Numbered from the stretch's first letter, positions 10,051-29,929 are shown. The stretch is DNA of 64,000 nucleotides from an uncultured Candidatus Saccharibacteria bacterium (GCA_964394925.1 CAYMZG010000001.1:67656-131655), one strand, 5' to 3'. Numbers and translations: made by a program. Notes: generated by a model not told the origin, from the letters alone.

Positions 10051-10057
10051 CCCTTAC

Positions 10058-11535: not shown

Positions 11536-11560
11536 GACGACCTGCGGGTCGTCCTTTTTT
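11536..11560 (+). terminator. Orphan rho-independent terminator
   Basis: GACGACC-tgcg-GGTCGTC hairpin followed by cTTTTTT. No annotated plus-strand gene lies upstream of it. Confidence 0.55.
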
Positions 11561-11604
11561 ATGGAATGGACCTGCTAATAACAAAGTAATAGGAGGTTCA
11601 TATC

Positions 11605-12018: not shown

Positions 12019-12396
12019 GACTGCGCTATACTAGGAATACACATTAAAAATTTAACCGTATTCCATGTAGCAGCTAATCGCGGAGACGACCCGCTTAAAC
12101 TATCGGGGCTGCACACATACATGGAATGTAAGTAAAAACGAGACACGGACTCGGCATAAAACGGGCTTACACGCGGACTAATTAGGGCAATTGCCTTGAG
12201 GAGTCGTTGTGGAGTCCGTTTTTTCACAAATCAACCGGGATATAGGAGTGGTCGCACTCCTAAGTATCCTTGCTACTTACGCAAAGGTAGAAACACAAAC
12301 TAAGCCATTCTTGATTAAGGACGGCATAAAAATCATTTTGTAGACATAAGCCTAAGTGAGCTCTAACTATGTGAGCAAGGATTATATAATCTAGCT

Positions 12397-14049
12397 ATGG
12401 CTGAGCTAAACAATACTCAGAAATTATTAGAACTACTCCAAGCAGGTCAACCAAAGTCACCGGCTGATGTTGACACTGGTACTGTTCGCTATGCGTTGTA
12501 TGCTCGCAAGTCAACCACTAGCGAAGACAGACAGGCGTCTTCTATTGAGGACCAAATTAAAGAGTGTATGGAGAATGTCGTATCTCCTAATAACCTTAAT
12601 ATCGTAAAGGTCTATGACGAAAGCTTCTCAGCAAAAGTAGCTGATACGCGCGTGAAGTTTAATGCAATGATTAGCGAGATTGAGAACGGTCGTATTGACG
12701 GCGTTATTGCATGGCATCCTGATAGGCTCTCACGAAATATGAAAGAGGCTGGTGCAATCATTGACCTTGTAGATAGAGGTCTAATTAAGGACCTACGATT
12801 TAGTACATTTACTTTTGAGAATACCCCTGCTGGCAAAATGCTCCTGGGCATAACTTTCGTCATGGCAAAGCAATACTCAGAGCACCTCTCGGAGTCAGTG
12901 GACCGAGGCAATAAGCGAACGGTCGTGGAAAGAACTGAGTTTATTGGCAAATTCAAGCATGGTTATATTGTAGATATTGACCGCGCATTCCAACCCGACC
13001 CACACAACTTCACCAAGGTTAAAGAGATGTTTGCCATGGCGCTCGCCGGTAAATCACAGAAGGATATCCGACTATGGATAAATGAGCAGGGTTATACGGT
13101 CCAAAAACGCGCAGGTGGTGAATATGTGCAGCACATCTGGGATAAAGATGATGTGTCTAAGCTACTCAGAGACCCTCACTATGCCGGGGTACACAAATGG
13201 GGCAAAAACCTGACCGACCTAGTTGAGGCTTACGACTTTGAGCCGATGATAACCGTTAATGAATTCCTCAGGATAAATAAGATAGATAGCCTGAACTCAT
13301 CAAAGGTATTGGCAATTAGTAGACCAAGGAGCGGTGATATAGGCGCTGACCTGCTTCGTGGTATGGTCTACTGCTCTATGTGTAATAAGACCTTTACCTC
13401 AATGCTTATACCAAAACGAGACAAAGTTACTAAGGAAATCATCCATGCTCGCTACTACTATAAATGCGAGACAGAAGGCTGCTCTATGGTTAATAAATCT
13501 GCTCGCGGTGGGCTGGTCATAGAGGCTGCGCAACAGTTCTTTAGGCAATACCTATTCGTTACTAAGAGCAACTATGCCTATTACGCGAAGGAGGCTGAAA
13601 AAGAGGCTAACCGTAAGGCGACTGAGTTTACTAGCGCCATAGCAAGACTAAAGCTGCTCATTGCCAACAAAGAGAAATCATATGAGGAGGTAAAAGACCT
13701 CATCATAAAGAACCCCGAGCTAAAAGACCACTACGACCTGGCAAAATATGCTAAGGAAATTAAAAAGCTCAAGAAAGACTATAAGGAGGCAGCCGACTCA
13801 CGCGACAAAATTAAGAGCGCTATTCCAAGTTTCGAGGAATACCTCAAACTCCTGGAGTCGACTCCCGTTATTCTGAGTAAAATACGCGACATGAAGACCA
13901 TGGATGCTCTACTGCGTGTTTTCTTCTCTAATTTCACGATTACACCGGGCGAAAAAGACTTTCGTAAGGGGTCAACTGTTACCTATAAACTAAACGAACC
14001 CTGGCAAGGGTTCGTTGATGACGATGATTTCGTTTCTGGTGCCAGATAG
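12397..14049 (+). CDS. Large serine recombinase (rec1)
   Basis: N-terminal resolvase-type catalytic region (YALYARKSTTSEDRQ...DGVIAWHPDRLSRN), a recombinase domain, a zinc ribbon (CSMCNK...YYKCETEGC) and a coiled-coil tail. The last 4 codons and the stop lie in the shared att-like core/IR. Confidence 0.9.
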   Translation: MAELNNTQKLLELLQAGQPKSPADVDTGTVRYALYARKSTTSEDRQASSIEDQIKECMENVVSPNNLNIVKVYDESFSAKVADTRVKFNAMISEIENGRIDGVIAWHPDRLSRNMKEAGAIIDLVDRGLIKDLRFSTFTFENTPAGKMLLGITFVMAKQYSEHLSESVDRGNKRTVVERTEFIGKFKHGYIVDIDRAFQPDPHNFTKVKEMFAMALAGKSQKDIRLWINEQGYTVQKRAGGEYVQHIWDKDDVSKLLRDPHYAGVHKWGKNLTDLVEAYDFEPMITVNEFLRINKIDSLNSSKVLAISRPRSGDIGADLLRGMVYCSMCNKTFTSMLIPKRDKVTKEIIHARYYYKCETEGCSMVNKSARGGLVIEAAQQFFRQYLFVTKSNYAYYAKEAEKEANRKATEFTSAIARLKLLIANKEKSYEEVKDLIIKNPELKDHYDLAKYAKEIKKLKKDYKEAADSRDKIKSAIPSFEEYLKLLESTPVILSKIRDMKTMDALLRVFFSNFTITPGEKDFRKGSTVTYKLNEPWQGFVDDDDFVSGAR

Positions 14050-14260
14050 CCAGCATATTCCAAACAATAAATGCCACTAATGTAGACGTGTACAAGCTTG
14101 AAGCTCTGGCACAGCAATTTAACCTAGCGGGAGATTTGCTCCAAGCATAAAGCTGGAAGGTAAATCACAGCCTGTGCAGGTTCTGTTTAATGACAAGTGC
14201 TTGGTAGCGCTTTGCTGCTGCCAATGTTGCTAGGCAATAACAGTGAGGTATCAGTGAGAA
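14037..14260. repeat. IR-A left arm (224 bp), begins with core TGGTGC
   Basis: Perfect reverse complement of 24003-24226 when compared block by block. Confidence 0.9.
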
Positions 14261-14910
14261 CTTAATTCAGATAGTAGCACCTTGAAGTTAAGCTCACCTA
14301 TATTCTTGGGCGAGATAACAACATTCTGTGCGCTGCTTAGTGTCATATAACTGTGGCTGACTAATTCAGGTATAGCTTGGAGCCAAAGAGCCTTGCTCCT
14401 CATAATTACAATCGTTTTATTTTGCTTTATTGCTTCCTTAACAAGCTCAAAGGAGTAAAGCTGTGAAGGAGTAAAAGCGTTGATATGTTTGTAGTTAATT
14501 GAGTGATAGGGAAAGTATTCAATCATCATAATTTTATCTCTAAGTGCTTCTAGGGACACGCCAGCATTTAATAGTGGTTTAAGTTTTGCGCTCCACCATT
14601 TATAGCCACCCGTTTTTTCTAGCCCGCCGTTAAAGTAATAGAATGGTGATTCAAAGGGGTCATTTAGATTACCCCGACACCCTTCAATAAATGCAGTGAG
14701 TTTCATATTCACGCTTACATCTGAATCAGTAAAACCTGGATTAAGTGCCAAGAACACTACCTTTGCATTATTAAGACCACCTACAAGAGGTTCAGGTAGC
14801 GTATCAAGTCGCAAGCCAATGAAGTTTTTGTGATTCTCAATAACTGCTAAGTCATCATCAAGAATATAAGGTTCTCTAAATGGTAGTGACTTCCAAGGAT
14901 TACTTCGCAT
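14251..14910 (-). CDS. Hypothetical protein, possible uracil-DNA glycosylase superfamily member
   Basis: VVFLALNPGF resembles the MUG/UDG motif-1 (G-x-NPG) and EYFPYHS loosely resembles motif 2. The assignment is weak. The last 10 nt lie inside IR-A. Confidence 0.45.
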   Translation of the reverse strand: MRSNPWKSLPFREPYILDDDLAVIENHKNFIGLRLDTLPEPLVGGLNNAKVVFLALNPGFTDSDVSVNMKLTAFIEGCRGNLNDPFESPFYYFNGGLEKTGGYKWWSAKLKPLLNAGVSLEALRDKIMMIEYFPYHSINYKHINAFTPSQLYSFELVKEAIKQNKTIVIMRSKALWLQAIPELVSHSYMTLSSAQNVVISPKNIGELNFKVLLSELSSH

Positions 14911-14996
14911 ACATATATGTTATTACATTCGTTTAGAAGTAATAGCTTTTACTTTTATTAGTTCCCCTATACCACTACAAAGTCTATAATCAGCTT

Positions 14997-15848
14997 ATGG
15001 GATTATTATCTAAACTATTCAATTCGGACAATCAAAAGGAACCAAAAATTACTGTAACCGTAACTGGCGGAATAGAAGATGACGGTTATAAACCAGCGAA
15101 GCGTGAGTTTAGTGATAATGAAGCTGGTTTACTAGATACTATTAACACTAATGAAACAGTAGTTCCCACGCAAAAACTTCCGTTTTCTAATGTATGTCCA
15201 TACTGTGGAGTAGTCCAATCCAAGCCAGTAGGACGCAAGAAGAACTGTTCAGATTGTAAAAAGCCTATCTATGTAAGAACTACGCAAGACCTTTTTCCTT
15301 CTAGTGCATTAACGGAAGAACAAGTAGCTCACGTTGATTTTTATATGGGAATGAAGAACTACCTAATGGCTACGAAAGATGATTTCAAAAGGCACGAAAA
15401 GCTCTTACAGAAGAAATGGAATACACCAAAAGTTAATACCTACGACGTACTTTGGTCAATGTACAACGACACAGAGCTTTTAAAGCGAAATATAGATAAA
15501 TCCTACACTGGAAAGTGGGCTACTATACAGTTATTACGTAATCATCAGATTGCTACTTTTGAAGCAGCAGAGTATCAAGCAGCAAGAGGTAATGACCCAA
15601 CCCCTTACCTAAAAACAGCACAAGAGTATTCACTAAAAATGGCAAAGTTAAATGAATACGCAAAAGGTCTTACAGTTCAAAGTTATTCTTGTTGCGACGC
15701 CTGTACAAAGTTCCACGATAAGACGTTCACATTAGACTTTATTGAAAAAACACCAGTACTACCTATTAAGACCTGTACTCACCCTTTTAGGGACGGTTCT
15801 AAGTTTGTTCTGTGTACTTGCAGGTACAGTGAATACACCGAATACTAA
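14997..15848 (+). CDS. Hypothetical Cys-rich (zinc-ribbon) protein
   Basis: CPYCG...CSDCKK and CCDAC...CTHPF...CTCRY clusters. No known family recognised. Confidence 0.5.
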   Translation: MGLLSKLFNSDNQKEPKITVTVTGGIEDDGYKPAKREFSDNEAGLLDTINTNETVVPTQKLPFSNVCPYCGVVQSKPVGRKKNCSDCKKPIYVRTTQDLFPSSALTEEQVAHVDFYMGMKNYLMATKDDFKRHEKLLQKKWNTPKVNTYDVLWSMYNDTELLKRNIDKSYTGKWATIQLLRNHQIATFEAAEYQAARGNDPTPYLKTAQEYSLKMAKLNEYAKGLTVQSYSCCDACTKFHDKTFTLDFIEKTPVLPIKTCTHPFRDGSKFVLCTCRYSEYTEY

Positions 15849-15852
15849 CAAG

Positions 15853-17355
15853 TTATTCCTTGCACAGCTCCATTAAGTAATCGTAAATCTTTACCATTGC
15901 TAGCGTGTCTAAGCAACAATAGGTTTTTAGCGACTTGTAAATATGTTGAGCTTCTTCGTTGGTTAAAGCGCCTGTAACAGCTTCATACCAGCGAATAGAA
16001 GCTGATAGTCCATTTTGTATATCAAGCTCTTTATAGCTAAACTCTGGGACTAATACCGGCAATACATATTTTATTGAGCTACTACCCTTAAAATCGTGAT
16101 GTACATAATGCTGTTTACTAAACACGTCCATTAAATCAAATACACGATTATTCATATCTGTAAGATAGTCGGAGTATTCGGGATACGACTTAGCCATTTC
16201 TACATTACGTCCAGTTTCAAAAGATTTATTCCAGACTATTACACTCCCTGTATCGCCAAGGTTTTCCTTCAAACTTCGCAGCAACCCTTCCATTGGAGCT
16301 TTCTCGTTATCGGTCGCTAAGTATTCAAAATGCTCTAGTTCACTATTTTTATCTTTCTTTACGTGTAAAGAATACTGGAAAGGTAATTGCTGAAACGGAG
16401 AGCTACCACTAACAAGCGGTAAGGCAGTAGATACAGTTTCGTAATCCAAAAAGTAAAGTGGAAACTCTAATTCGCTGCATAGCTCTTTAATAGAATCTTT
16501 ATCAATTATAGGCTCTTTTGTTTTCGCTACTTGAACTTGATTCTTTTGTATAACGGAAAGCTTTAAGTCTGCTGGAACGTCTTTCACATCATAAATATCA
16601 CCGTCAATGAGTATTCCTAATTTCTTACCGTTAATACGAGAGATATTAAAAACAGAGTATTCGGGAATGTTTGGATTAAAATAATGAAAAGTCGGACAAT
16701 GACCAGACCTAGTTTTTAATTTACAGCTACAGGATTTAGGCTCGTCACTCCTATTAACAAGCTCCACAGCGTCATTTATCTGCTGTTTGATTGTAGGCAT
16801 AATTTTTTCTACTTTTTCAGTTACATCTATTGTTATTAAAAGTTCTTTAGGGTTGATTGCACCTCTACGAACGTACTCTTTATTCAAGTGAATTACTTGT
16901 ACATTGGAGATGAGATACCCTGATTCTTCAAAAGCTATACGTTGAAAAGTAACATCATATATATGCTCTGGCTTAATTGAGTTTGTAGACTTAACTTCGT
17001 ATAGCGTCCAAGTATCATCAGCATTTTTCTTGATTACGTCAGCCATTGCTAATAAGCCAGTTTCAGTAACTACTGTTGCTTGAAATAGAGTTTTAGCATT
17101 CTCTGCAACTAAGACATCAGTGTCTTCTTTTGCTTTTCTACCTCTTGTAGTAATTAGTGTAGCTTCTGGGAATAATTCACGGGCTTTTGCTTCAACCTCG
17201 TTACCTTGTTCTAGGCGACGGTTAATAGCTTCTTCTTCATCAGTAGGGACTAGTTCTGGTTTATGTTTCCAAAGCCAAAGGTAACTAGGGCAACACTGAT
17301 ATTTCAAGAAATCTGACTTTGATAAATATGTTTTTGTTTTTGTGGCGGTTGTCAT
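15853..17355 (-). CDS. DUF2779 domain protein (predicted PD-(D/E)xK/Cas4-like nuclease N-terminus)
   Basis: The N-terminus YLSKSDFLKYQCCPSYLWLW is characteristic of DUF2779, and there is a Cys cluster (CSCKLKTRSGHCP). The start overlaps the upstream stop (ATGA). Confidence 0.7.
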   Translation of the reverse strand: MTTATKTKTYLSKSDFLKYQCCPSYLWLWKHKPELVPTDEEEAINRRLEQGNEVEAKARELFPEATLITTRGRKAKEDTDVLVAENAKTLFQATVVTETGLLAMADVIKKNADDTWTLYEVKSTNSIKPEHIYDVTFQRIAFEESGYLISNVQVIHLNKEYVRRGAINPKELLITIDVTEKVEKIMPTIKQQINDAVELVNRSDEPKSCSCKLKTRSGHCPTFHYFNPNIPEYSVFNISRINGKKLGILIDGDIYDVKDVPADLKLSVIQKNQVQVAKTKEPIIDKDSIKELCSELEFPLYFLDYETVSTALPLVSGSSPFQQLPFQYSLHVKKDKNSELEHFEYLATDNEKAPMEGLLRSLKENLGDTGSVIVWNKSFETGRNVEMAKSYPEYSDYLTDMNNRVFDLMDVFSKQHYVHHDFKGSSSIKYVLPVLVPEFSYKELDIQNGLSASIRWYEAVTGALTNEEAQHIYKSLKTYCCLDTLAMVKIYDYLMELCKE

Positions 17356-17744
17356 AGTTCTACATTTCTTATTCGGTCAAGACGATATTTATAACTGTAA
17401 CCCTTCGTACCTGGTATATGCAAATAAGTGTTATCAAATGTGAAGCTATAAAATACCCTAAAAGTTTTATCATCTTTGTAATAGATTTTTGCAGGTTGGT
17501 TTGATACAGAGCGATATTTCAAATACTCCAAGATGTATTCCATAGATACTTCTTGTTCAAACTTTACTCGTTTAACTACAGGTTTAGTTGCAGACCTAAC
17601 AGTCTTCTGTGTATTCCATTCACCGCACGAAGTACATCTGCCTGACCAAGTTTCAGTCACAGCGTCGCAGTTGCTGCACTGATACCAATTTTTATTAGAA
17701 GTAGATTTTTCTTGCCGACCTATTTGCTGCCTAAACGAGTGCAA
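17352..17744 (-). CDS. Zinc-ribbon protein; the coding frame very likely extends upstream to 17882 or beyond (see slippery site)
   Basis: CSNC-x10-CTSC ribbon. The track start is a TTG, but the same frame stays open upstream to 17939 and encodes a second ribbon (ICSVC-x17-CYLC) with no ATG/GTG/TTG start. Confidence 0.6.
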   Translation of the reverse strand: MHSFRQQIGRQEKSTSNKNWYQCSNCDAVTETWSGRCTSCGEWNTQKTVRSATKPVVKRVKFEQEVSMEYILEYLKYRSVSNQPAKIYYKDDKTFRVFYSFTFDNTYLHIPGTKGYSYKYRLDRIRNVEL

Positions 17745-17878
17745 CGTTTTGCCAGTTACTTTTTCGTAACATAGATAGCACTCTGGTCGTCCTTTGAAAG
17801 GAAATAGCCACGACCATTTTACTTCCTCACAAACGCTACAAATCCGCTTATCGCCTTTTTGTACTGATTCAATAACGG

Positions 17879-20800
17879 CTAAGAAACCGTCAATAGCCCC
17901 TTGCGTATATTCTTTTTTTTTACGACGTTGGCTAATAAGCCGTCAAGTTGCTTTATGGGTTCTTTTCCAAGGTTAAACTTGTTCAGTCTTAGAAACTTAT
18001 AGCCATAGCCTTCAAGTACTTTTTGCCTATAAACATCATCTGCTTTTAGATAACTTTCGTAGTTACTTTCATTTACTTCATCTAGGTTTATGAAATGTTC
18101 ATTAAATCCGTCATATTCAATAACTATTTTTTGTTTACCGAATGTAAGCAAGAAGTCTACTTTATACATTGGGTGGCTGTAATTTTTATCTAGCGACTTC
18201 AAGTATTCGCCTAGCGGGAACTGTGGAACTAGTTCTAGTTGGTCTTTGTTCTTTTGGTAGAACTCGGTCTGATAGAAGTAGTTCTGTACTAGAGGTTCCA
18301 TCGCAGACTTCTCGTCAGTACCACCGATTTGATGAGTAGTGGTGTTAAGAGCATTTTCATAATAAAGTAGCGCAGTTTTAACTTCGCCCCAATACTCATT
18401 GACAGGCTTACTAAGTACAAAATGTATTGTTTCTTTTGCTCGGCTGAAACCAACATTTAGACGTTGCTCACGTGTCCCGAACTCCTTCCCAGTCTTAACT
18501 GATTCTTCCATTGAAATTGGGAAAATATATCGGTGTGTATTCTCATCACTTTTTTCAACCATACTGTACAAAAGATAATCTCGTTCTTCGCCTTGGCAGG
18601 TATCAAAGGTCATCACCTTTAGGGAGTGTTCGTGTAGCCAGTCAGAAATCCCCGAGTCATTTAGCAGGTTGTTAATAAACGTGGCTTGCTCTCTGTGTGG
18701 TGTAATAACGCCTAATGAGCCAGCATAATCCTTGTTTTTGAGTGCTGTAAATTGCTCTAGGATATAGTTAGCTTCCGCAGAGTTTGTCAGCCTGTATTGT
18801 TCGGTGACACCTTCTGTCTCAACTTGCGTAAACTTGATAACTTCACTAATAGGTAATGAACGAGCTTTCATACACTGTAAGTTATTGTCATAGAAATACT
18901 TGTTTGAATAACCAATGATTTCTGGGTAACAACGAAAATGCTTTTTCAGCATTGTTTGATAATTTGTAATGAATCTACAGAAGTCCAAAATTGAGCGTTT
19001 AACATTAAAGTTTTCATCTACCCTTGCAGAGTAAACTGAACTGTAGTCTTTAGCCTGTGCGTCAATTGAAGCCCTTAAAGTTTTCAGTAGGTTACTGCGA
19101 TACTTGCTGTTAGTAAGTACGCTAGCGTTTCCAGCCTTTACGTTACTAAACTGCTTCTCATCACCAAGTACCAAGATTTTTTTGCCACGAATCAAAGCTG
19201 GTAGAGCTTGGGCAATACTAACCTGGGAAGCTTCGTCAATTATTACTAAATCAAACAAGCCTTTTTCTAAAGGAATATACGTTGCGTAATCTCTAATGCC
19301 AGCTAGTATGCAGGGGAACGCTTGCTTTAAGTCGCTGAAAAGAACTTTAGGAAACTTCTGCTTAGATTTGAGCATAGATTTCAGCGTTCTAATATCAGCA
19401 GCGTGGTGGTCTACATAGTCAATAATACGAGTATCTAAAATGTTAGCCATTTTAGCTGCATTAAGTAGGTACAGGCTTTCGGAACTATCTGCAAAGTTAT
19501 CTGTAGCTATAACTTCAAACTTATCGGCAAGTTTCTGTGCTTCTTTCTTATCATTCAGGTAATCAGCTAGTTCGCTTTCACTCATATCTATGAATCGCTT
19601 ATCAACTGCGTCTACAGATTCAGTGCCTTCTGTAAGGTTTATGGCTTGTGCAACATCAGGGTAGCTGAAAATGAATTGCTCTACTGTGCTTCTATGATTT
19701 AGAGCAGTTTCTAGTTCTTCAAGCTCACCAGCAAGTGATTTTAGTTTTTTGATTTCTTCATCAGGGCTTGATAACAATACATTTACGCTGGATTTAATAA
19801 TTGTAAGCACCTGTTCGTTAGCGTGAGCGATTTCCTGCAAATTACGAGCATTGCTTAATGCGGTAATGGCACTGTTAATGTCTTTGAGTTGCGATAGCTT
19901 GTAGCTCTTAATGAAGTCATTTTCATTTGGTTTACTTAGTAGATTTAATACTTTTTTAATGTTTTCTACTTCATCGCCTGGCAGGAGCAATAGCTCTAGG
20001 ACAGGTTTCCACGAACTTTCATCTAGTCCTTGTTGCTGCAATTTACCCTTTAGAAAGTTCAGTGTGTCTACGAACCCTACCAGCTCTGTAACGTGTTTTT
20101 CGGGCGAAGATAGGTTTAGATACGGAAGTTGAGTTTTAAGCTCCCTTACAAGGGCTTCTATTGAAGATTTCTTGCCAGAATAGCCAAGAAGCCTAGACCG
20201 TAGAGATTGTAGCTTTGAAATAAAGTCATTTAGTGAAGTATGTAATTCGCTTAGGCTTACTTCACATTTCAAAGATTGCTCAATAATATCTTTTGAGTTG
20301 TAGATATTAGGGGCAAACATTCTGACCGCATTTACTGTGTCCCTAGAGCGATAGAAATTATCTTCTGCTGCAAATACGTCAGCTATAGTACTAGCTTTGC
20401 TTAATGACTTAGTTCCGCTATATGATGATTCCTTCAAATAAGCTATACATTCATCTAGGTTTTCATTTATATCATCTACTTGCTGTTTTAGCTGGTTTTG
20501 ATTCTCAACACTTTGTTTCTTGTACCCATTGATAAACGCAGCGAAGTCTTTACTCAATGAATGCCGTGATTTTGCGTATGCGTCAGTAGCTAGAATAATT
20601 TGCTCTAAGTTTGATAAAGCTGGTGAATTAGCGAATGGAATCAAATACAAAACTTTGCTTTGTTTCAAGGCTAATACTGATTTATGTACGTCCTTGAAAG
20701 ATTCAATTAGTTCATCATCAACGGCACTAACCCAATCAATGCCTGTGTACTTTTCTTCTGACTTAATAACTGATTTAACATCAGATAAACTAATCTTTTC

Positions 20801-22549
20801 GCCAACACCAATTACCGTTTCTAGTGATTCTGTGGCTTCGTCCTTTGCTTCTTTTTCAGCAGTTTTAAAATCATTAACTCTACTTCTATATGCTCTAAGA
20901 TGTTCACGCACTTTTTCTAGTGCTTGTCCTTCAATAACCTTAGCTAGACCTCGGCTAGATTTTCCTAATCGCAGAATAGGATTTTGGAAGTTTTTGTCGT
21001 GCCTAATAGTACTTAATGTGTCAGTAATCTTGTCTTGAACTACATCAAGAGCTTCTTCTTTGTCTGAAAGCACAAGGACAGATTGACCTTCCAGGAGTGC
21101 CTTACAAACAATCGCAGTAATTGTATGGCTTTTACCAGTTCCTGGTGGACCTTCAAGTATTGCAACTTTACAGTCGTCTTTTTGCAGGGCTAGTAAAACT
21201 TGTTTCTGCTCTTCATTTAAGGCTATAGGGCTATCAACAATCAGCTTTTCTAAGATTGTTTTTTCTTCCCATTCTTGTGCAACGTCTTCAATAAAGTTTT
21301 GTGGATTTTCAGTAACGAAGCTGTCAATCAGTTCTGCAAAGGCTTCCGTAAGTTCGCCTTGGTCTTCAATAATTTCTTCATAATCATTTATTAAGGATTC
21401 GTCAGACTTATCAAAGAGAAATAGCTGTAAACGATTAGATATGCGTGTAACCATATTATTAGCAATTTGACTTGACGTTTCTTTAATGTCTACGGGCTTA
21501 GTTAGTCCCAATACGTCCCGAACATCATCTACAATTTTTTGTAACTGTGGCAATAAATCTTTTTTATTTTCAAAATAGATAATTCGGTCAAACGTACCAC
21601 CAACACTTTCATTACTTGAAGTAGCGACATTGTTTTGCTGAACTACAAACTCAATGGCTTTGATATTCACAAATACTCGGCTATCAAAACTGATTGAGAG
21701 TTTAGAATCCTCTTGTTCCACAGAGATAGGTACATAGAATAATGGAAATGAGAAGTTATTAACGCCAATCTCGCCGAAATATACATATAACTCTGTTTTA
21801 TCAAGCATATCTTTATTTCGGTTGAGCTGTAGTATTTCAGCATATGCGTCTGACGCACTAAACTCTTTGAAAAACTCCTTTAGAGCAGCCTTTACTGCAA
21901 GTGAGTCAAAAATACCTGCCAAAGCTTTAGAAAGGGACTTAGAATCCTGTGTAGCAGCAAAGAACTCCTCTAGGACTGTAGCTATACTATCTTCTGCAAG
22001 TGCATAGACCTTTGCAGTAGCGTCCGTTTCAAGCTGGTATAAGCTACTTTCAGCACTCCATCCAGCAGCTTCTAGTGATTGTTCAATGTCATTCAGGAGC
22101 GGGGCGATAACCTTTGTATCAAACTTATTCTTTATAACTTCTAGAGAAGTTTCAAAATAGTTATCATAATCCTTTTGATTATCTAGCCTAAGTTGATTTA
22201 TTTCCTTCGTGATTTCTTTTAGGGTGTCAATAATTTCATCATCGGATAGCTGGTCAATTCGCTGTTCAAGTAAAGAAACTAATCTATCAGAAATCTTAGT
22301 GGTGTATTTACCAAGTTCTACATCAAAACTTTCTTTTGCAAAACCACTTATGAAGTTTTTATAAAGTTCTCTATAGAGGGTCGGGTACTTATCAAGATAA
22401 AGCCCTGTAGACAAACCTTTATTTACCCTAGTTGTAAGGTTACGCTTTGGCTGTGTGCGTTTTTTGAAATCTGTTTCCAAAAAAGCCATAAAGTACTTGG
22501 CTACTTCGGTAACAAAATCTTTACTAATTACAGGGGGCTTCGTGTCCAT
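17879..22549 (-). CDS. Giant SF1 (Upf1/DNA2-like, AAA_11/AAA_12-type) helicase with C-terminal DUF559/Vsr-like endonuclease domain
   Basis: Walker A ILEGPPGTGKSHTI, Walker B LVIIDEASQ, motifs TFDTCQGEERDY and NVGFSRAKE. The C-terminal YKVDFLLTFGKQKIVIEYDGFNEHF is typical of DUF559/REase folds. About 600 aa are inserted between Walker A and B. Confidence 0.8.
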   Translation of the reverse strand: MDTKPPVISKDFVTEVAKYFMAFLETDFKKRTQPKRNLTTRVNKGLSTGLYLDKYPTLYRELYKNFISGFAKESFDVELGKYTTKISDRLVSLLEQRIDQLSDDEIIDTLKEITKEINQLRLDNQKDYDNYFETSLEVIKNKFDTKVIAPLLNDIEQSLEAAGWSAESSLYQLETDATAKVYALAEDSIATVLEEFFAATQDSKSLSKALAGIFDSLAVKAALKEFFKEFSASDAYAEILQLNRNKDMLDKTELYVYFGEIGVNNFSFPLFYVPISVEQEDSKLSISFDSRVFVNIKAIEFVVQQNNVATSSNESVGGTFDRIIYFENKKDLLPQLQKIVDDVRDVLGLTKPVDIKETSSQIANNMVTRISNRLQLFLFDKSDESLINDYEEIIEDQGELTEAFAELIDSFVTENPQNFIEDVAQEWEEKTILEKLIVDSPIALNEEQKQVLLALQKDDCKVAILEGPPGTGKSHTITAIVCKALLEGQSVLVLSDKEEALDVVQDKITDTLSTIRHDKNFQNPILRLGKSSRGLAKVIEGQALEKVREHLRAYRSRVNDFKTAEKEAKDEATESLETVIGVGEKISLSDVKSVIKSEEKYTGIDWVSAVDDELIESFKDVHKSVLALKQSKVLYLIPFANSPALSNLEQIILATDAYAKSRHSLSKDFAAFINGYKKQSVENQNQLKQQVDDINENLDECIAYLKESSYSGTKSLSKASTIADVFAAEDNFYRSRDTVNAVRMFAPNIYNSKDIIEQSLKCEVSLSELHTSLNDFISKLQSLRSRLLGYSGKKSSIEALVRELKTQLPYLNLSSPEKHVTELVGFVDTLNFLKGKLQQQGLDESSWKPVLELLLLPGDEVENIKKVLNLLSKPNENDFIKSYKLSQLKDINSAITALSNARNLQEIAHANEQVLTIIKSSVNVLLSSPDEEIKKLKSLAGELEELETALNHRSTVEQFIFSYPDVAQAINLTEGTESVDAVDKRFIDMSESELADYLNDKKEAQKLADKFEVIATDNFADSSESLYLLNAAKMANILDTRIIDYVDHHAADIRTLKSMLKSKQKFPKVLFSDLKQAFPCILAGIRDYATYIPLEKGLFDLVIIDEASQVSIAQALPALIRGKKILVLGDEKQFSNVKAGNASVLTNSKYRSNLLKTLRASIDAQAKDYSSVYSARVDENFNVKRSILDFCRFITNYQTMLKKHFRCYPEIIGYSNKYFYDNNLQCMKARSLPISEVIKFTQVETEGVTEQYRLTNSAEANYILEQFTALKNKDYAGSLGVITPHREQATFINNLLNDSGISDWLHEHSLKVMTFDTCQGEERDYLLYSMVEKSDENTHRYIFPISMEESVKTGKEFGTREQRLNVGFSRAKETIHFVLSKPVNEYWGEVKTALLYYENALNTTTHQIGGTDEKSAMEPLVQNYFYQTEFYQKNKDQLELVPQFPLGEYLKSLDKNYSHPMYKVDFLLTFGKQKIVIEYDGFNEHFINLDEVNESNYESYLKADDVYRQKVLEGYGYKFLRLNKFNLGKEPIKQLDGLLANVVKKKNIRKGLLTVS
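17912..17921 (-). promoter_or_regulatory. Slippery run A9G containing the A_AAA_AAG heptamer in the zero frame
   Basis: The minus strand reads GTA AAA AAA AAG AAT. The -1 frame (or a +1A transcript) continues without a stop into the zinc-ribbon ORF. Confidence 0.5.
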
Positions 22550-23049
22550 ATTTTGTGAGCTTGCTTACGAATAACTATACAACATTTACTCCTGTAAATC
22601 CTGCTTAAGTTAAAAATGGCAGGAAATACTTATTTAAGCCCTCTACAGCCCTATATGAAATGTCCTAAACTATAGATGTGGAAGAACTGCGTAAAAAAAT
22701 TTGAGGAGCATTAAAGAATATGCCACCCATTGACTGGTCGGACACTAGACCGCCAACTGAACACGCAGTTCACGCTATGATTAGGAACTTACACGCTGCT
22801 GCTGGCACAGACGCAGACAACACTCTAAAACGCAAAGAACAGTGAGATAACAGTGAGCAAATAGTGCGATAGTGCCTGACGCTGGTTGAGCTTTAAGGCT
22901 ACAGATTTTTCTGACAATGCCGCAAAACCCATTTGTGTTATTTTATATATACCTTGTACTAGGTACATACCTTTTACTTATACAGACCTAGTACTATACA
23001 AATCTAGTACTATACATAACGTAATAGTGCCATTTCATTACGTGAACTG

Positions 23050-23391
23050 TCACGAATCCTCTTGCAGGGCGTAATGTTTATCATTATGGGTACGGTTAAT
23101 AATTACACCAGAGTAACTTTCAACCTCGTCAATGATACTGTCTAACAAGAACCCGTAGAAAGATGAATGCTTGCCATACTCAAACTTATCTTTCCAGCGT
23201 TCACTGGATTTTTCTTTATAGCTCCCAGGATACAGGCCGTATTCACCCTTATGTGCGTGGAATAGTACAAACTTGAAATCCAAGTATAGGTCAATTGGCA
23301 TTATATGTACCTTAACTCTGTATGTGCCTTCGTCTAAACTTGTAGGGGCACTATATACTTCTACTTGTTCAAGATAGAGTTCTACCTGCAT
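23050..23391 (-). CDS. Hypothetical protein (113 aa)
   Basis: ORF overlaps the upstream gene by 10 nt (operonic). No recognisable motif. Confidence 0.45.
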   Translation of the reverse strand: MQVELYLEQVEVYSAPTSLDEGTYRVKVHIMPIDLYLDFKFVLFHAHKGEYGLYPGSYKEKSSERWKDKFEYGKHSSFYGFLLDSIIDEVESYSGVIINRTHNDKHYALQEDS

Positions 23392-23798
23392 AGCTCAACT
23401 CCATTTACCTCGTGCCATACAGAATGAAGTATGCAAACCCAGTCTTCATCACCACGAGCTTGAGCGCACATCACTTTGTCTAGCTGCGCTTCCCGCAATA
23501 TGTCATTCAATAGTTTCTTGCGCCGTTGATTAAGCTTAAACTTCCTGCGCAACCAGCCTGGCTTTACTTGGCCGTATTGCATAAAAAGCCAGCGTATCCA
23601 TTTGAACTGCTCGGTGCTTAGCTTAATCTCTATTTTGTTTATGACTCTACGCTGTAAAGTCGGGTCTAAAACCGCCGTCTGGGTGTCAGGAGCATAATTT
23701 GTACGCTTCGCATATTTGTCTAGCTTTTTGCTGCGACTTTCTACCGTAATGTTTTTTTGCAGGTTTTTGTGTCGGGACTCATCATATTGAGTTTTCAT
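23382..23798 (-). CDS. Hypothetical basic protein (138 aa)
   Basis: ORF downstream of a strong promoter. Lys/Arg-rich; possibly DNA-binding or a recombination directionality factor, which is speculative. Confidence 0.45.
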   Translation of the reverse strand: MKTQYDESRHKNLQKNITVESRSKKLDKYAKRTNYAPDTQTAVLDPTLQRRVINKIEIKLSTEQFKWIRWLFMQYGQVKPGWLRRKFKLNQRRKKLLNDILREAQLDKVMCAQARGDEDWVCILHSVWHEVNGVELCR

Positions 23799-23923
23799 TT
23801 AACCCTACCTTTATATAGAGCGAACAGACCAGTCGGCATACTGGCTCGCTTTTATTTAGGAGTAACGAAGCACACCTACGCTCCGTTAAACGCTGTTTGT
23901 AAGAGTCACTTTCACTTACCTAC

Positions 23924-23952
23924 AGTATACGCTAATGCTTATGGAAAGTCAA
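23924..23952 (-). promoter_or_regulatory. Sigma70-like promoter (TTGACT-17-TATACT)
   Basis: The minus strand reads TTGACTttccataagcattagcgTATACT. It lies just inside the segment bounded by IR-A, upstream of the 138-aa gene. Confidence 0.55.
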
Positions 23953-24002
23953 GCCGATTTATGTTCTAATAAACCTTTATAATAAAAAGTCGGCTTACAG
24001 TT

Positions 24003-24226
24003 TTCTCACTGATACCTCACTGTTATTGCCTAGCAACATTGGCAGCAGCAAAGCGCTACCAAGCACTTGTCATTAAACAGAACCTGCACAGGCTGTGATT
24101 TACCTTCCAGCTTTATGCTTGGAGCAAATCTCCCGCTAGGTTAAATTGCTGTGCCAGAGCTTCAAGCTTGTACACGTCTACATTAGTGGCATTTATTGTT
24201 TGGAATATGCTGGCTATCTGGCACCA
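24003..24226. repeat. IR-A right arm (224 bp)
   Basis: Perfect reverse complement of 14037-14260. It contains the last 37 codons of rec2. Confidence 0.9.
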
Positions 24227-25744
24227 AACTGCATTTTTAGCGCCTTCGGGCGCTTTTCTGTTTAATTGGGTAAGCTCGTTATAGGGGTAATTTACGCTAA
24301 ATGTGAGCTTTTTGCCGTTAAGTTGCAAGTTAGAAAGTAGGAAGCCAAGAAGCTTAGATTTTTGGGCTTCATCAGCACACTTGAACAGTTCTTCGGCTCT
24401 ATTTGCTAGGTCTAACAGATACGAACAAGTTAGTAACAAGTCTTTATTGCCCCTAGTTAGAATATCTAGCTTGTCATTTAGGCGTTCTTGACGCTTCGTA
24501 AGAGTTTTGACGACCTCGTCATACTTATCTGGTTCAATGCGGTCATCTACCAAGCGTTCCCACCACATATTGAGCTTTTTATCTACTGTGTCATACTCTT
24601 GTCTTGCTTCGGCTACAGACACTGCGTAGTGCTTTTGCTGGCTTTTGTGATTAGCTCTTAATTCTTGCGCAACTTTTTTAACTATGTAGTCTGGAAGCGT
24701 AATCTCTTTGATAACAGCTTCAATAGACCCCATAACCAAGGATTCTGCTGTATTAGGATTCTTGCAAGTAGGGTTTGCACAATTTAGGTATACCCATTGC
24801 TTTGACCTGAATGGCGATACTGCTCGTCCGCATACTCCACAACTCACAACGTCTTTAAGAGTGAAGTCCATACTGTCCCATTTACGTTTCATAGACTTGC
24901 GCTCATCTCTAACCAACTGACACCTATTAAACAAAGACCTGTCTATCAAAGGCTTGTACTTGTGTTTGTACTCCTTGCCCTTATGAACCATAGTGCCGTA
25001 GTAGAACTTATTGCTGATAATCTTTTCTACGCCAGCCTTAGTAAGTTCGGCCTTACCTGTTTTACGGCTTGTATAGCCAGCTTTGAGGAGTTCTTTAGCG
25101 ATAACACTGTACGGCATACCCAGCGCACGTAACTCAAAGGCTTTTACAATGTAATGGGAGCGTTCTGTGTCCTCGTGAATGTCCTTTATTGGCTTAGATA
25201 ACACTTCTGTTTGTATTAGCACATTCTTATAACCTACAGGCGCACGATGAACCCAAACACCGTCAGCTAATAGCTGCTCAAACCTGCGCTTAACATTGTC
25301 CCTTATGGAGCTTGAGTAGTAGCCAGCAAGCGCAATACCTATATCTAAGCGGAACAAATCAGGTGCAGGGGAATCCTTATGAATGAATAAGTTATCGCTA
25401 GGAAAGTGCATTTCAATCTTGCCCTGCCTAAACAACTTTGTCAGTGCAGCTCGTTCATTGGAAGTTGATTCACGGCTGAATCTGTCAATTTTGTCAAACA
25501 CAACAAAAGTTTGTGCATTGGCACTTTGTAATGGCTCAATTACCAACTCATTAAAGGTCTTGCGGTTTTCTTTGTAGGCTGTTTCGTCAAACTCCACATA
25601 CCTAAAGTCTTGCTTTTCAACCCAACGGCAGCGTTTAGCGTACTCATATAGGCGTTTTTTCTGGGCGGGTAGTGCTTTACGTTGCTCTACGTCCGACACC
25701 CTTGCTACTAATAATGCTTTTGGTTCATTGTGTGCTGTTTTCAT
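24113..25744 (-). CDS. Large serine recombinase (rec2)
   Basis: Catalytic region ALLVARVSDVEQR...FDKIDRFSRE, a zinc ribbon (CGVCGR...YLNCANPTC) and a coiled coil. The gene reads through the TGGTGC core at 24226-24221. Confidence 0.9.
   Translation of the reverse strand: MKTAHNEPKALLVARVSDVEQRKALPAQKKRLYEYAKRCRWVEKQDFRYVEFDETAYKENRKTFNELVIEPLQSANAQTFVVFDKIDRFSRESTSNERAALTKLFRQGKIEMHFPSDNLFIHKDSPAPDLFRLDIGIALAGYYSSSIRDNVKRRFEQLLADGVWVHRAPVGYKNVLIQTEVLSKPIKDIHEDTERSHYIVKAFELRALGMPYSVIAKELLKAGYTSRKTGKAELTKAGVEKIISNKFYYGTMVHKGKEYKHKYKPLIDRSLFNRCQLVRDERKSMKRKWDSMDFTLKDVVSCGVCGRAVSPFRSKQWVYLNCANPTCKNPNTAESLVMGSIEAVIKEITLPDYIVKKVAQELRANHKSQQKHYAVSVAEARQEYDTVDKKLNMWWERLVDDRIEPDKYDEVVKTLTKRQERLNDKLDILTRGNKDLLLTCSYLLDLANRAEELFKCADEAQKSKLLGFLLSNLQLNGKKLTFSVNYPYNELTQLNRKAPEGAKNAVWCQIASIFQTINATNVDVYKLEALAQQFNLAGDLLQA
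24221..24378. repeat. IR-B left arm (158 bp) inside rec2
   Basis: Perfect reverse complement of 27985-28142. It overlaps IR-A only in the 6-bp core. Confidence 0.9.
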
Positions 25745-25826
25745 CTTATAGTCCTTTACAAACTAACTATATGATGACCTCCGATACTAAAGCGACCGGA
25801 TAATTTGCGTATTCTAAACTTAAGTT

Positions 25827-26288
25827 TTAGTCAAACAGGCTAAGCTCTGCCATATCGGGTGGCTCTAATTGGCTAGCAGATTGTTCAAGGCGTTCTCTTG
25901 TGAGTACTGCGTCTTTGTCATTTTCTTTCTTATTGCGAGCGTCCACTCTACGCCATAACTCCTCAAACGGCACGTCAAGGTAGCGCAACTCTATTCTTAG
26001 ACCTAAAGAGTGAGCTTCAAGACGTAACTTATCTCGCTCCTCACGTCCCCAGAATCCGTTTTCCAGTATTACATTGCTACCTGACCTTGCTTGGTCTAAT
26101 GCCTTTTGCCATTGTTCAGCTTCAATTTCCGCTCTAGCTTTCTCATCAAAAAAACTAATACCGCGTTCATACATTTCTTGGTCTGGACTCATCACAGTGG
26201 CTTGCAGTTCCACGGCCAATTTTTTGGCAAGTGTGCTTTTACCTGCACCTGGCAATCCACAAAGCAAAATAAGTGTTCCTTGTTTCAT
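25827..26288 (-). CDS. P-loop kinase/ATPase (AAA_33-like)
   Basis: Walker A GLPGAGKSTLAKKL. Small size typical of a phosphotransferase. The start overlaps the ABC-F stop (ATGA). Confidence 0.65.
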   Translation of the reverse strand: MKQGTLILLCGLPGAGKSTLAKKLAVELQATVMSPDQEMYERGISFFDEKARAEIEAEQWQKALDQARSGSNVILENGFWGREERDKLRLEAHSLGLRIELRYLDVPFEELWRRVDARNKKENDKDAVLTRERLEQSASQLEPPDMAELSLFD

Positions 26289-27760
26289 TTGATTTCCTTA
26301 TCTAGATTAATTGTACGATTTATGCCAACTTGACGTAAGAAGTATTTGTCGTGTGAAGCAATTAACATTGCGCCTTGATAGTCCTGCAATGCAGCTTCAA
26401 TCTTTTCTCTGGTAGGCAAGTCTAAGTGATTAGTTGGCTCATCAAGAATCAAAAGATTATTTTGCGATAGTAATAGTTTTGCAAAACTAAGCTTAGCTTG
26501 CTGCCCTCGTGACAGCTCACCTGGCTTCTTTCTAAGGTCTTTTTCGTCTAGCCCTAGACTTCTGGCTTCACGGTAAATAGCTGTGGAACTTGACCCTGTA
26601 GTATCAAGGTTTTCAAAATTACTCAGGCTATAATCCAGTCCATTTACATCTTGGGAAAAGTAGCCGTACTTTATATTTTGTCCTAGCTCAATGTTCCCGC
26701 TATCTGGTGCAAGCAATCCAGCAGCGATTTTTAGTAGCGTAGTTTTGCCACTGCCATTAGTGCCTTGAATATGCAGCCTTTCCGTACCTCGTATTTCAAA
26801 GTCAGTATATGTAAGGGTTCGTTTATAGTATGCTTTCCTGACATTTTCAGCCCTTACGATCAGCTTAGTTGGCGGAACACTCCCAGCAAGTGTAACTTTG
26901 TAGTTTTTGCTGGACTCTGGCTTTTCAACTTCCTCTAGTTGCTCAAGCCGACCTTGCAGCATTTTGGCATTTTGACCGAACTTAACAGTTAAACGATTTT
27001 TGAAATAGTCCCGTTGTGCCTTGTCATTATCGGGGCGTTTTATGTTCTTGTGGATATGCTGGCTCTTATCGCTCTGAGCTTTAATAGCTTTTTCTAACCG
27101 CTTACGTTCCTCAATGTTACCTTCGTATTTTTCAAGCTCGGTTTGATATTCAGTTTCCTTTTGCTGTTTGTAAAAATCGTAATCACCGCCGTATTGCTTG
27201 AGCTTGCCTTTATGCAGTTCGGCAATACTTGTGGCAACTTTGTTAATGAAGGTTCTGTCGTGGCTGACGAGTACAATACCGCCCTTAAAGTTCTTGACGA
27301 ATTGCTCTAACCACAACAGACCGTCAACATCCAGATTGTTGGTAGGCTCATCAAGCAGTAGCACAGTAGGTTCTGGGTCGCTCGCAAGTACTTTTGCAAG
27401 TGCCAGGCGTGTTTTCTGACCACCACTTAAACTAGAAATGGCTCTGGTTTTTGGGACGCTTTCAAGCCCGACTAGACTTAATGCGTAGTCTATTTTCCAG
27501 TCCTCATACTTATCAAAGCTATCTTGAATAGTACCCACTGCTTCGGCTTCCTGTGGGACATAACCAATGACTTCGTGATGTAAGGCAACACTGCCACTGT
27601 CTGGCTTTAGCTGACCAAGAATTATTTTAAGTAAGGTTGTCTTGCCAGCACCATTTTCGCCAATAAGAGCAATGACCTCGCCAGGGTTAACCGACAGGCT
27701 TACATCTTCAAGTACAGGCTTATCTCTGTACGATTTGTGTATGTGTTGCAGGGCAAACAT
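26285..27760 (-). CDS. ABC-F family ATPase (two ABC domains, no TMD); possible ribosome-protection/ARE type
   Basis: Two Walker A motifs (GENGAGKTT, GTNGSGKTT), two signature motifs (LSGGQKTRL, LSRGQQAKL) and a charged inter-domain linker. Confidence 0.85.
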   Translation of the reverse strand: MFALQHIHKSYRDKPVLEDVSLSVNPGEVIALIGENGAGKTTLLKIILGQLKPDSGSVALHHEVIGYVPQEAEAVGTIQDSFDKYEDWKIDYALSLVGLESVPKTRAISSLSGGQKTRLALAKVLASDPEPTVLLLDEPTNNLDVDGLLWLEQFVKNFKGGIVLVSHDRTFINKVATSIAELHKGKLKQYGGDYDFYKQQKETEYQTELEKYEGNIEERKRLEKAIKAQSDKSQHIHKNIKRPDNDKAQRDYFKNRLTVKFGQNAKMLQGRLEQLEEVEKPESSKNYKVTLAGSVPPTKLIVRAENVRKAYYKRTLTYTDFEIRGTERLHIQGTNGSGKTTLLKIAAGLLAPDSGNIELGQNIKYGYFSQDVNGLDYSLSNFENLDTTGSSSTAIYREARSLGLDEKDLRKKPGELSRGQQAKLSFAKLLLSQNNLLILDEPTNHLDLPTREKIEAALQDYQGAMLIASHDKYFLRQVGINRTINLDKEIK

Positions 27761-27772
27761 ATAAACTCCTAA

Positions 27773-27972
27773 CTAAAAAACCGAGCGTGTTTGACGTATA
27801 TCGCCACACAACTGCTCGGTTTCTCAAAAGGGTTTAACTGATAGAATTACAATCAAATAGCAAAGCTACACAAAGCTGTGTGAACGACTTTAGCGGTTGA
27901 TTGTTACTATCATAAGTATGTTTAACTCCTTTAGTACATATAAACATTAACACTATAATCTCAATGTGTCAA
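27773..27972 (-). promoter_or_regulatory. ABC-F leader: promoter, 7-codon leader ORF and terminator-type attenuator
   Basis: TTGACA-17-TAATGT (27972-27944). AAGGAG followed by ATG ATA GTA ACA ATC AAC CGC TAA (27913-27890). Hairpin AACCGAGC...GCTCGGTT plus T6 (27822-27773), then AGGAG and the ABC-F ATG. Confidence 0.55.
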
Positions 27973-27984
27973 ATACTTTTATAC

Positions 27985-28142
27985 GTGCTGATGAAGCCCA
28001 AAAATCTAAGCTTCTTGGCTTCCTACTTTCTAACTTGCAACTTAACGGCAAAAAGCTCACATTTAGCGTAAATTACCCCTATAACGAGCTTACCCAATTA
28101 AACAGAAAAGCGCCCGAAGGCGCTAAAAATGCAGTTTGGTGC
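27985..28142 (+). pseudogene. Duplicated rec2 3' fragment (IR-B right arm) fused to the tRNA-Gly 3' end
   Basis: Encodes ADEAQKSKLLGF...NAVWC, identical to rec2 residues, and ends in the core. The track ORF 27966-28148 is this fragment. Confidence 0.8.
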
Positions 28143-28212
28143 GGGTGACGAGACTCAAACTCGTGGCCTCTTCCTTGGCAAGGAAGCGCTCTATCAACTG
28201 AGCTACACCCGC
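28137..28212 (-). tRNA. tRNA-Gly(GCC), CCA encoded
   Basis: Cloverleaf read by eye: GCGGGTG/CACCCGC acceptor and anticodon loop TTGCCAA. The D-loop is AGTTGATA and the T-loop TTTGAGT (apparent A19:U56 covariation). Confidence 0.85.
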
Positions 28213-28347
28213 TTAACAGGTGAGGATTATAGCTATTTTGACCCGATGAATCAAGTTTACATTTGTCCAGTATTAGGAATAGTATGCGATTCAAAGAAGC
28301 AATAGGATAGCATCCTCTATTACGTTATAATAGTGGCGGCATAAAAT

Positions 28348-28422
28348 GGCGCGTTGGCCGAGGAGTTTAGGCACAGCTCTGCAAAAGCTGGGACACCGGT
28401 GCGAATCCGGTACGCGCCTCCA
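28348..28422 (+). tRNA. tRNA-Cys(GCA), CCA encoded
   Basis: Acceptor GGCGCGT/ACGCGCC, anticodon loop CTGCAAA, T arm ACCGG-TGCGAAT-CCGGT. Confidence 0.8.
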
Positions 28423-28423
28423 T

Positions 28424-28867: not shown

Positions 28868-28976
28868 ATACTGATTATAATCTGAGTTATAGCTGTAAGA
28901 TATTGTATTTTTTAATCGTGTCTGTGGTATGGTAAAAATACCACTGTTAGCGAGCGAGGCATTAGGAAAGAATTAT

Positions 28977-29928: not shown

Positions 29929-29929
29929 C

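Follow-up and report, generated by a model that had tools for sequence, protein, structure and literature searches.

Probable tandem integration of two large serine recombinase elements at a tRNA-Gly gene, one of them with an internal inverted attP duplicate

How do three att-like junctions on one bacterial contig come to share a six-nucleotide core and to form two perfect inverted-repeat pairs that meet in that core? The question was raised by an earlier note on a 64,000-nucleotide stretch of DNA from an uncultured Candidatus Saccharibacteria bacterium (GCA_964394925.1 CAYMZG010000001.1:67656-131655); this whole stretch is referred to here as the window, and positions are counted from its first letter. 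Our preferred reading, which we hold at a probability of roughly 70%, is that two elements, each with its own large serine recombinase (LSR) gene (rec1 and rec2), lie in tandem at the 3' end of a tRNA-Gly(GCC) gene and that the attP region of the second of them, E2, has an inverted copy within the element, so placed that two segments, U1 (14261-24002) and U2 (24379-27984), are bracketed and invertible.

A repeat search of the window found exactly two inverted pairs within 12000-30000 and, besides these, no repeat of at least 30 nt in that interval. The first pair, IR-A (14037-14260 versus 24003-24226), is 224 nt long and the second, IR-B (24221-24378 versus 27985-28142), is 158 nt long; both are 100% identical, and they overlap in the core TGGTGC at 24221-24226 and in nothing more. 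The end of each arm coincides with a core, IR-A bracketing U1 and IR-B bracketing U2. At the three cores, S1 (14037-14042, plus strand), S2 (24221-24226, minus strand) and S3 (28137-28142, plus strand), the junctions read cgtttcTGGTGCcagatagccagc, gcagttTGGTGCcagatagccagc (on the minus strand) and gcagttTGGTGCgggtgacgag, respectively. The S3 core consists of the final 6 nt of an intact tRNA-Gly(GCC) gene (28137-28212, minus strand), which was placed by ARAGORN and Rfam (71.2 bits), TGGTGC being the reverse complement of its 3' end, GCACCA; a promoter-like site for this gene lies at 28254-28226. The earlier note had described the two perfect pairs with their 6-bp overlap, the three junction sequences and the match of the core to the tRNA-Gly 3' end, and all of these were read identically here. 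Since the hexamer occurs 55 times in the window, versus 35 expected, TGGTGC alone carries no signal; the signal lies in the length and perfection of the arms ending there. Chance cannot account for perfect repeats of this size, 224 and 158 nt, with an end hexamer in common. Comparison of the junctions defines the core to 6 bp only.

Judged by sequence and domain content, both recombinases are LSRs. The product of rec1 (12397-14049, plus strand; 550 aa) ends in FVSGAR, the 3' end of the gene running into S1, and rec2 (24113-25744, minus strand; 543 aa) represents the full-length, attP form. Both proteins contain the Pfam domains Resolvase (PF00239; E=1.5e-20 for rec1 and E=1.6e-11 for rec2) and Recombinase (PF07508), with an additional weak match to Zn_ribbon_recom in rec1, and their mutual identity is only 22%. 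In an alignment of 45 sequences, S16 and R14 (S17 and R15 of the open reading frame [ORF]) were invariant or nearly so; alignment numbers, which equal ORF numbers minus one, are also used here for cysteine and helix positions. Four cysteines of rec2 are conserved (C301, C304, C321 and C326), and in its AlphaFold (AF2) model (mean predicted local distance difference test score [pLDDT], 86), the coiled-coil insert shows long paired helices at 351-398 and 404-455. In a Foldseek search with this model, the best PDB matches, which extend over its whole length, were the SPbeta, Bxb1, PhiC31 and LI (Listeria) integrases (E=1e-17 to 1e-10). The core is read by rec2 as codons W507-C508 (TGG TGC), after which the IR-A arm (A arm) contributes 35 more residues, a tail for which the model shows two short helices with pLDDT block means of 74-84.

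The ends of related proteins bear directly on the nature of the three junctions. A database search yielded 440 relatives of rec2 at E<=1e-30, and the ends were classified in the best 120: 60 terminate in WCG directly before the stop codon and 27 continue antisense through tRNA-Gly (WCGYRDSNPGPLPWQGSAL...), together 87/120, and five (P0010, P0048, P0058, P0080 and P0100) have a conserved tail of ~35 aa homologous to that of rec2 (KIVDAFQTSALDAQNDYKLKHLVEVFGLSGDLL in P0048), a similarity that extends, at the protein level, down to 48% identity. For rec1, with 1,298 relatives at the same threshold, 91 of the best 120 end in tRNA-Gly-derived sequence and four have a tail of the form xLQNLLKLF...IIY; this family uses another frame, in which the core is read x-GGT-GCx ('GA'). 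At the locus level, the rec gene runs straight into tRNA-Gly(GCC) in L002, L007 and L011, the last of these without repeats, and a relative at 43% identity (L003, L005) runs into tRNA-Arg. Together, the tRNA-derived ends, the conserved tails and the loci that run into the tRNA indicate that S2 is an intact attP and S3 an attR, and the family comparison supports the earlier proposal that S1 and S3 are the attL and attR hybrids of S2. In both families, attP lies within the recombinase ORF, some 35 codons ahead of the stop, and integration is predicted to remove the conserved tail; the reconstructed attB, at the tRNA-Gly target, reads aaacattTGGTGCgggtgacg. No terminal overlap was detected in the contigs with an uninterrupted attP form (L013, L014 and L010), so their circularity was not demonstrated, and a scan of viral contigs gave no match to the conserved P' half-site. 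Of three short proteins consisting of a partial rec fragment plus the tail or plus WCG (P0242, P0255 and P0256), P0255 and P0256 were not counted as further examples.

A fourth core, S0 (8092-8097, plus strand), absent from the earlier note, accounts for the other end of the rec1 element, E1. When rec1 up to the core at 14042 is joined to the sequence that follows 8097, the ORF is extended by HLQNLLKLFNSLMDDNIFRALTIPEPREMLGKVIY and a stop, so that it reads GAHLQNLLKLFNSLMDDNIF...KVIY, in agreement with the conserved tails of the full-length relatives P0136, P0176, P0185 and P0220. Because the rejoined rec1 regains its family tail, 8092 is the attL of E1, with the P' arm of E1 (8098-8206, plus strand) representing the native C-terminal tail, parted from rec1 by integration. 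Directly oriented cores are located at 8092, 14037 (adjoined by rec1) and 28137, giving the order X0, core (8092), E1 (8092-14042; 5.95 kb), core (14037), E2 (14037-28142; 14.1 kb), core (28137), tRNA-Gly. Tandem integration behind rec1, as suggested before, is thereby supported and extended. Of the three-site, two-recombinase arrangement that had also been proposed, the interlocked sites stand; rec1 has no part in it, a search for an inverted arm belonging to rec1 having found none, and one element with an internal inverted attP duplicate is the better description. A locus from another genome, L008, likewise has two LSR elements in tandem at tRNA-Gly, without inverted repeats.

Within this array, each junction can be assigned a role. 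S1 is the attR of E1 turned into the attL of E2 (rec1 3' end, core and A arm); S2 is the intact attP (IR-B arm [B arm], core and A arm) and points the opposite way from S1 and S3; and S3, a junction shared with L002, L007 and L011, is the attR of E2 (B arm, core and tRNA body). Correspondingly, the first A arm (14037-14260, plus strand) comprises the core and the P' arm of E2 and holds the coding sequence of the Rec2 tail, detached from rec2, while the second (24003-24226, minus strand) is contiguous with rec2 and encodes the last 35 aa of Rec2, followed by 110 nt of downstream sequence. The first B arm (24221-24378, minus strand) contains the core and the final 152 nt of rec2 ahead of it, and the second (27985-28142, plus strand) is a detached rec2 3' fragment adjoining tRNA-Gly. 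Loss of E2 only is predicted to leave the junction sequence cgtttcTGGTGCgggtgacg.

The inverted layout recurs in relatives whose rec genes share 81-83% nucleotide identity with rec2 of the window. In L006 (NCBI JAWVHH010000040.1, 364 kb), A arms of 343 nt (957-1299 and 8953-9295) and B arms of 160 nt (9290-9449 and 11368-11527) meet in one inverted core. L007 (JGI) has A'-core'-B' at 162-406, upstream of rec, and B arms of 141 nt, and in L002 (MEGAHIT k141), B arms of 120 nt surround rec alone, the A arms being outside the contig. The cargo bracketed by the B arms differs by genome, being nothing, a racemase-like gene, a 137-aa ORF or, in the window, a kinase gene plus an ABC-F gene. In addition, a Logan contig (L001; run SRR13287419) corresponds exactly to 25792-28014 of the window and stops 30 nt (k-1) inside IR-B, the behaviour expected of a k=31 graph at the edge of a genuine repeat, which supports this arm boundary. 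Going by these contigs, the interlocked inverted layout is genuine and recurs in three relatives that were assembled independently.

In each of the four genomes, the two arms of a pair match at every position (100% identity, 0 differences), while comparison across genomes gives an identity of 75-91% for B arms and of 75% for A arms. The window and L006 have the inner end of the B arm at the same rec codons (K-C-A-D), and these shared boundary codons, together with the identity of the arms, speak for a duplication that was inherited and whose copies do not drift apart. Moreover, rec is directed toward S2 in the window, and toward the tRNA-side site (S3) in L002, L006 and L007, which is suggestive, not proof, of flipping. 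Within one 90% cluster, a single rec lineage is joined to three different C-terminal ends: a Z tail (P0001), a full A-type tail (P0248) and a WCG end (P0249). Flipping of U1 and U2 might be ongoing, and the idea that these segments could flip has gained only indirect backing from the opposite orientation of rec in the three relatives and from the arms having been kept identical.

We propose the following course of events. Each element would be mobilised by its own LSR, with crossover inside TGGTGC, so that integration cuts off the conserved C-terminal tail and leaves the gene ending in the tRNA. E1 would have integrated first, and E2 would then have entered between E1 and the tRNA, which would account for the present 3' end of rec1 within the E2 A arm. 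The attP region of E2 (B arm, core and A arm; 376 bp) would be present twice, in inverted orientation, one copy having been used for integration and split into S1 and S3 and the other remaining intact as S2. This single assumption, an attP region doubled in inversion, would produce both perfect inverted pairs, their meeting in one core and the two bracketed segments. Recombination between paired arms would flip the segments and keep the arms identical; since arms of 120-343 nt suit homologous recombination, a RecA-type reaction would be the most conservative candidate for the catalyst, action of Rec2 at the cores being possible as well. A flip of U2 would change the arm that is read by rec2: into S2, as in the window, the product is the 543-aa protein, and into S3, it would be a 509-aa tail-less form ending in WCG. 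This difference probably matters, because the tail, for which two short helices are modelled, shows conservation down to 48% identity, and we infer that the tail affects activity or directionality. As to the origin of the second attP, our guess is that the circular element formed a head-to-head dimer and that both palindrome centres were then lost by asymmetric deletions, which would explain inner boundaries that are sharp and variable.

Several observations weigh against this proposal. The layout is absent from relatives at 43-66% identity and was found only in a close clade (~81% or more nucleotide identity over rec); a metagenome scan for rec2 added one distant locus, without repeats. In L006, the site equivalent to S3 adjoins the arm of another element, not a tRNA, so arrays exceed the simple model. 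Short-read contigs whose arms exceed the assembler k give an orientation of U1 and U2 that depends on read pairs and may be arbitrary, which limits the argument from rec orientation; only in L002 (arm of 120 nt, k=141) is the orientation secured by k-mers. Both orientations are known between genomes only, from assembled contigs and not from reads. The second attP has no account from known reactions, and no homology past the arm ends points to its source; to our knowledge, no serine-integrase reaction joins attP with attL or attR or creates an inverted duplication. Beyond the arm ends, alignment scores in the four genomes equal those of shuffled sequence, giving no sign of a decayed second full copy. 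Four conservative site-specific events were considered on paper as sources of the layout: tandem dimers, insertion at inverted pseudo-sites, an antiparallel exchange at a palindromic GC dinucleotide and a pair of inverted tRNA targets. All were rejected, as they predict another arm order or palindromic B-core-B' junctions.

Of the competing explanations, the one that survives best, unlikely as we consider it, is that the inverted attP is a static relic of one old rearrangement, with no flipping today and no consequence. It can draw on the lack of direct evidence for orientation heterogeneity, on the accidental look of the duplication and on the Logan contigs (k=31) that encode P0255 and P0256, which continue through the arm, passing straight through the partial rec fragment, and may be single-copy remnants (they were left uncounted). 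An old inert copy should diverge, however, and the paired arms show 0 differences in four genomes versus 9-25% between genomes; the presence of the rec segment in both orientations across genomes also speaks against such a scar.

We regard it as rather doubtful, and more so than a static relic, that the layout is a programmed switch, in which Rec2 itself inverts U2 (S2 x S3) and U1 (S1 x S2) at the cores, toggling full-length and tail-less isoforms that differ in directionality, or drives amplification of the free circle in the manner of Flp on the yeast 2-micron plasmid. The exact ending of all arms at the crossover core would fit such a switch, as would the conservation of the tail (to 48% identity) and its modelled helices. 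Precedents exist in Mx8, where integration gives int a new 3' end with a reported change in specificity rather than inactivation (PMC6070905), and in the archaeal Int-pTN3, which inverts DNA between inverted att sites (PMC5495485). Yet arms of 120-343 nt exceed what a site-specific reaction needs and are better matched to homologous recombination. Furthermore, the serine integrases characterised so far are known to recombine attP only with attB, and attL with attR in the presence of a recombination directionality factor (RDF); no RDF was identified here. The broader speculation that the internal inverted attP is a selected device, whether the rec segment is flipped by Rec2 or by host recombination, switching between a 'locked' tail-less form and the full-length form normal to the excised circle, or whether the circle is amplified in a manner like that of the 2-micron plasmid, strikes us as similarly doubtful.

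Two further explanations have very little left in their favour. That two separate copies of the element are present, one of them inserted in reverse, either within its counterpart or at a second, inverted target, would account for each arm being present twice, but integration into an inverted target gives core'-B'...A'-core' and not the contiguous A'-core'-B', there is a single rec body without homology past the arm ends, the polarity of the nonpalindromic core forbids inverted insertion into S1 or S3, and none of the loci examined contains two complete inverted copies with hybrid sites at an internal target. Equally improbable is the assembly chimera that the earlier note had named as its refuting scenario, in which integrated and excised forms of a simple element were merged and the inverted arms exist in no single molecule: although the source is a 319,735-bp NCBI contig without a stated assembly method, the relatives come from metagenome assemblies and the L007 arm, at exactly 141 nt, equals a common maximum k, mixed forms yield direct junctions only and cannot make 27984|27985, 14260|14261 or 24002|24003, the first of these is contained in the Logan contig that ends k-1 bases into the arm, and the four assemblies share the layout with differing arm lengths and cargo. 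We therefore rejected it.

An internally duplicated, inverted attP in a tandem array thus remains our preferred reading, and its general setting is a known kind of arrangement, a serine-integrase tandem at a tRNA gene; what stands out is the position of attP in the integrase gene, in two large families, and the conserved internal inverted attP. Large serine integrases such as PhiC31, Bxb1, SPbeta SprA and Listeria A118/LI share the domain set of rec1 and rec2 (Resolvase and Recombinase, with a zinc ribbon and a coiled coil seen in the model), are the best full-length structural matches and likewise have hybrid attL and attR sites around a short common core, with the gene beside the att site. 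They differ in that, here, attP lies in the recombinase ORF, the target is a tRNA 3' end and integration removes a conserved tail of ~35 aa; we know of no characterised serine integrase that combines attP in its own ORF with a tRNA 3' end target. Literature searches returned no description of families of serine integrases with an internal attP or of a conserved internal inverted attP. The successive accretion of genomic islands at tRNA genes is similar in that elements follow one another at one tRNA 3' end, the target being regenerated each time. The Hin, Gin and Cin switches also place a segment holding or adjoining a serine recombinase gene between inverted sites; these are small invertases with 26-bp sites and a Fis enhancer that switch a neighbouring gene, whereas the large integrase of E2 would have its own C-terminus switched, between arms of 120-343 nt.

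In the yeast 2-micron plasmid, FRT sites lie in 599-bp inverted repeats and are recombined by Flp, a tyrosine recombinase; the plasmid does not integrate. The circle predicted for E2 upon S1 x S3 excision would resemble this plasmid and plastid inverted repeats in having two unique segments and long identical inverted repeats, each with a recombination site, and flip-flop isomers and concerted evolution of the repeats would be expected of it. Such a circle of E2 was not observed, and its amplification is pure speculation. Mx8 also targets a tRNA gene. Its attP lies within int (intP), and integration rewrites the 3' end of int, with modified integrase specificity reported (PMC6070905); in SSV-type archaeal integrases, attP is similarly within int, and integration splits the gene (PMC7253208). 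An attP inside the integrase ORF and a protein altered upon integration are what these systems share with rec1 and rec2, which are not members of their group: Mx8 and SSV-type enzymes are tyrosine recombinases, unrelated in fold and chemistry and without an internal inverted attP. Finally, in Thermococcales, Int-pTN3 drives inversions between tRNA or att sites (PMC5495485). The link between an element's integrase and inversions between inverted att-like sites is alike there, but that enzyme is a tyrosine integrase causing megabase-scale chromosomal inversions, and here the inverted sites are inside one element.

Serine integrases are major genome-engineering tools, and the control of their directionality is an active research topic. 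The rec1 and rec2 families (>1,290 and >440 database proteins, respectively) are large, apparently undescribed and found in ultra-small bacteria of the Saccharibacteria type, and both have attP inside their own gene, share a 6-bp target in tRNA-Gly that they read in different frames, and lose a conserved tail on integration; such tail loss would provide a natural isoform pair for comparing activity and directionality. The inverted-attP variant could serve as a natural, conserved test case for whether inversion between an attP and an attL or attR site is the work of a serine integrase or of host enzymes, and it bears on how a minimal genome keeps long inverted repeats identical. Were the speculation of a selected device true, it would amount to self-encoded directionality control in a serine integrase. 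In practical terms, loci of this layout resemble misassemblies, and that of the window is none.

Directly after the 3' end of the tRNA-Gly gene follows a perfect intrinsic terminator, AGCGCCttcgGGCGCT plus TTTTCT, whose hairpin (28109-28124, minus strand) is antisense inside the B arm, with a second copy at 24239-24254 (plus strand). The terminator region (28092-28136, minus strand, and 24227-24271, plus strand) is antisense to the ~45 nt of rec2 that immediately precede the core. Despite the protein-coding role of this sequence, the hairpin is kept, with compensatory changes, in eight family members (the window, L002, L006, L007, L008, L011, L013 and L014); 3/6 pairs covary, and its score was reached by 0/500 shuffles. 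Retention by covariation of a hairpin antisense to the rec2 3' end suggests that the element supplies the terminator of tRNA-Gly from its integrase gene.

In relatives (L002, L007 and L008), tRNA-Gly(GCC) lies directly beside tRNA-Phe, on the same strand; in the window, the two genes (28137-28212 and 36454-36529) are 8 kb apart and on opposite strands. From this change in gene order, a local rearrangement can be deduced, one breakpoint of which adjoins the integration hot spot. In L006, a tRNA-Phe-like fragment (846-956) adjoins the S1-like site. An ORF at 36533-38074 (minus strand), with its stop 3 nt past the tRNA-Phe 3' end, was considered as a third integrase and rejected, as it encodes a PIF1-like helicase and no recombinase.

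The cargo of E2 is divided between its two segments. U1, with a GC content of 0.35-0.41 versus 0.45-0.50 in most sequence outside the array, contains a 219-aa ORF, a 283-aa ORF, a DUF2779/Cas4-like protein, a 130-aa zinc-ribbon protein, two small ORFs and a 1556-aa superfamily 1 (SF1) helicase (PDC-S37/MkoA/Hhe-like). A module of U1 (14955-22598) is 77% identical to L006 12272-19922; as this helicase module is inside U1 in the window and outside the repeats in L006, cargo modules appear to move between array positions. At L006 11528-19922, after the S3-like site, the arm of another element (tail AISYEVKTLLLRDYQKLLEN, also in P0017) is followed by the helicase module. U2 comprises the rec2 body, an AAA_33/zeta-toxin-like kinase gene (25827-26288, minus strand) and an ABC-F-type ATPase gene (26285-27760, minus strand). 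The last two (25792-27984) behave like an exchangeable cassette: homology upstream of rec ends at 25776 and 25820 in comparisons with L002 and L006, the left end of L001 (25792) is ~30 nt short of 25822, which fits a k=31 branch point near the cassette boundary, and near-identical ABC-F proteins occur on further 3.7-kb Logan contigs. Exact-protein look-ups of rec2, rec1, the helicase and a 147-aa neighbour returned no contigs; the ABC-F protein alone gave a Logan contig.

E1 holds, besides rec1, a reverse transcriptase gene (8196-10010, minus strand; PADLOC RT/UG17-like), a gene for an AIR-synthase-related protein (10130-11317, minus strand) and a secreted-looking 137-aa ORF. Just 5' of the reverse transcriptase domain lies a perfect 147-nt direct repeat (9598-9744 and 9904-10050; 306 nt from start to start) that is not part of a tandem array. 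Its interpretation as the template/variable repeat pair of a diversity-generating retroelement was rejected, the copies being identical and outside a target ORF, as was a group II intron, for which there was no Rfam match. A 66-nt repeat with 77% identity (10066-10131 and 11355-11420) is present on both sides of the AIR-synthase-related gene and may be a regulatory or terminator element. Between the two integrases of L008 (11713-14192), from a different Saccharibacteria genome, we likewise found a reverse transcriptase (RVT_1), together with a DUF4238 protein, and elements of this type seem, as a rule, to carry defence-like cargo.

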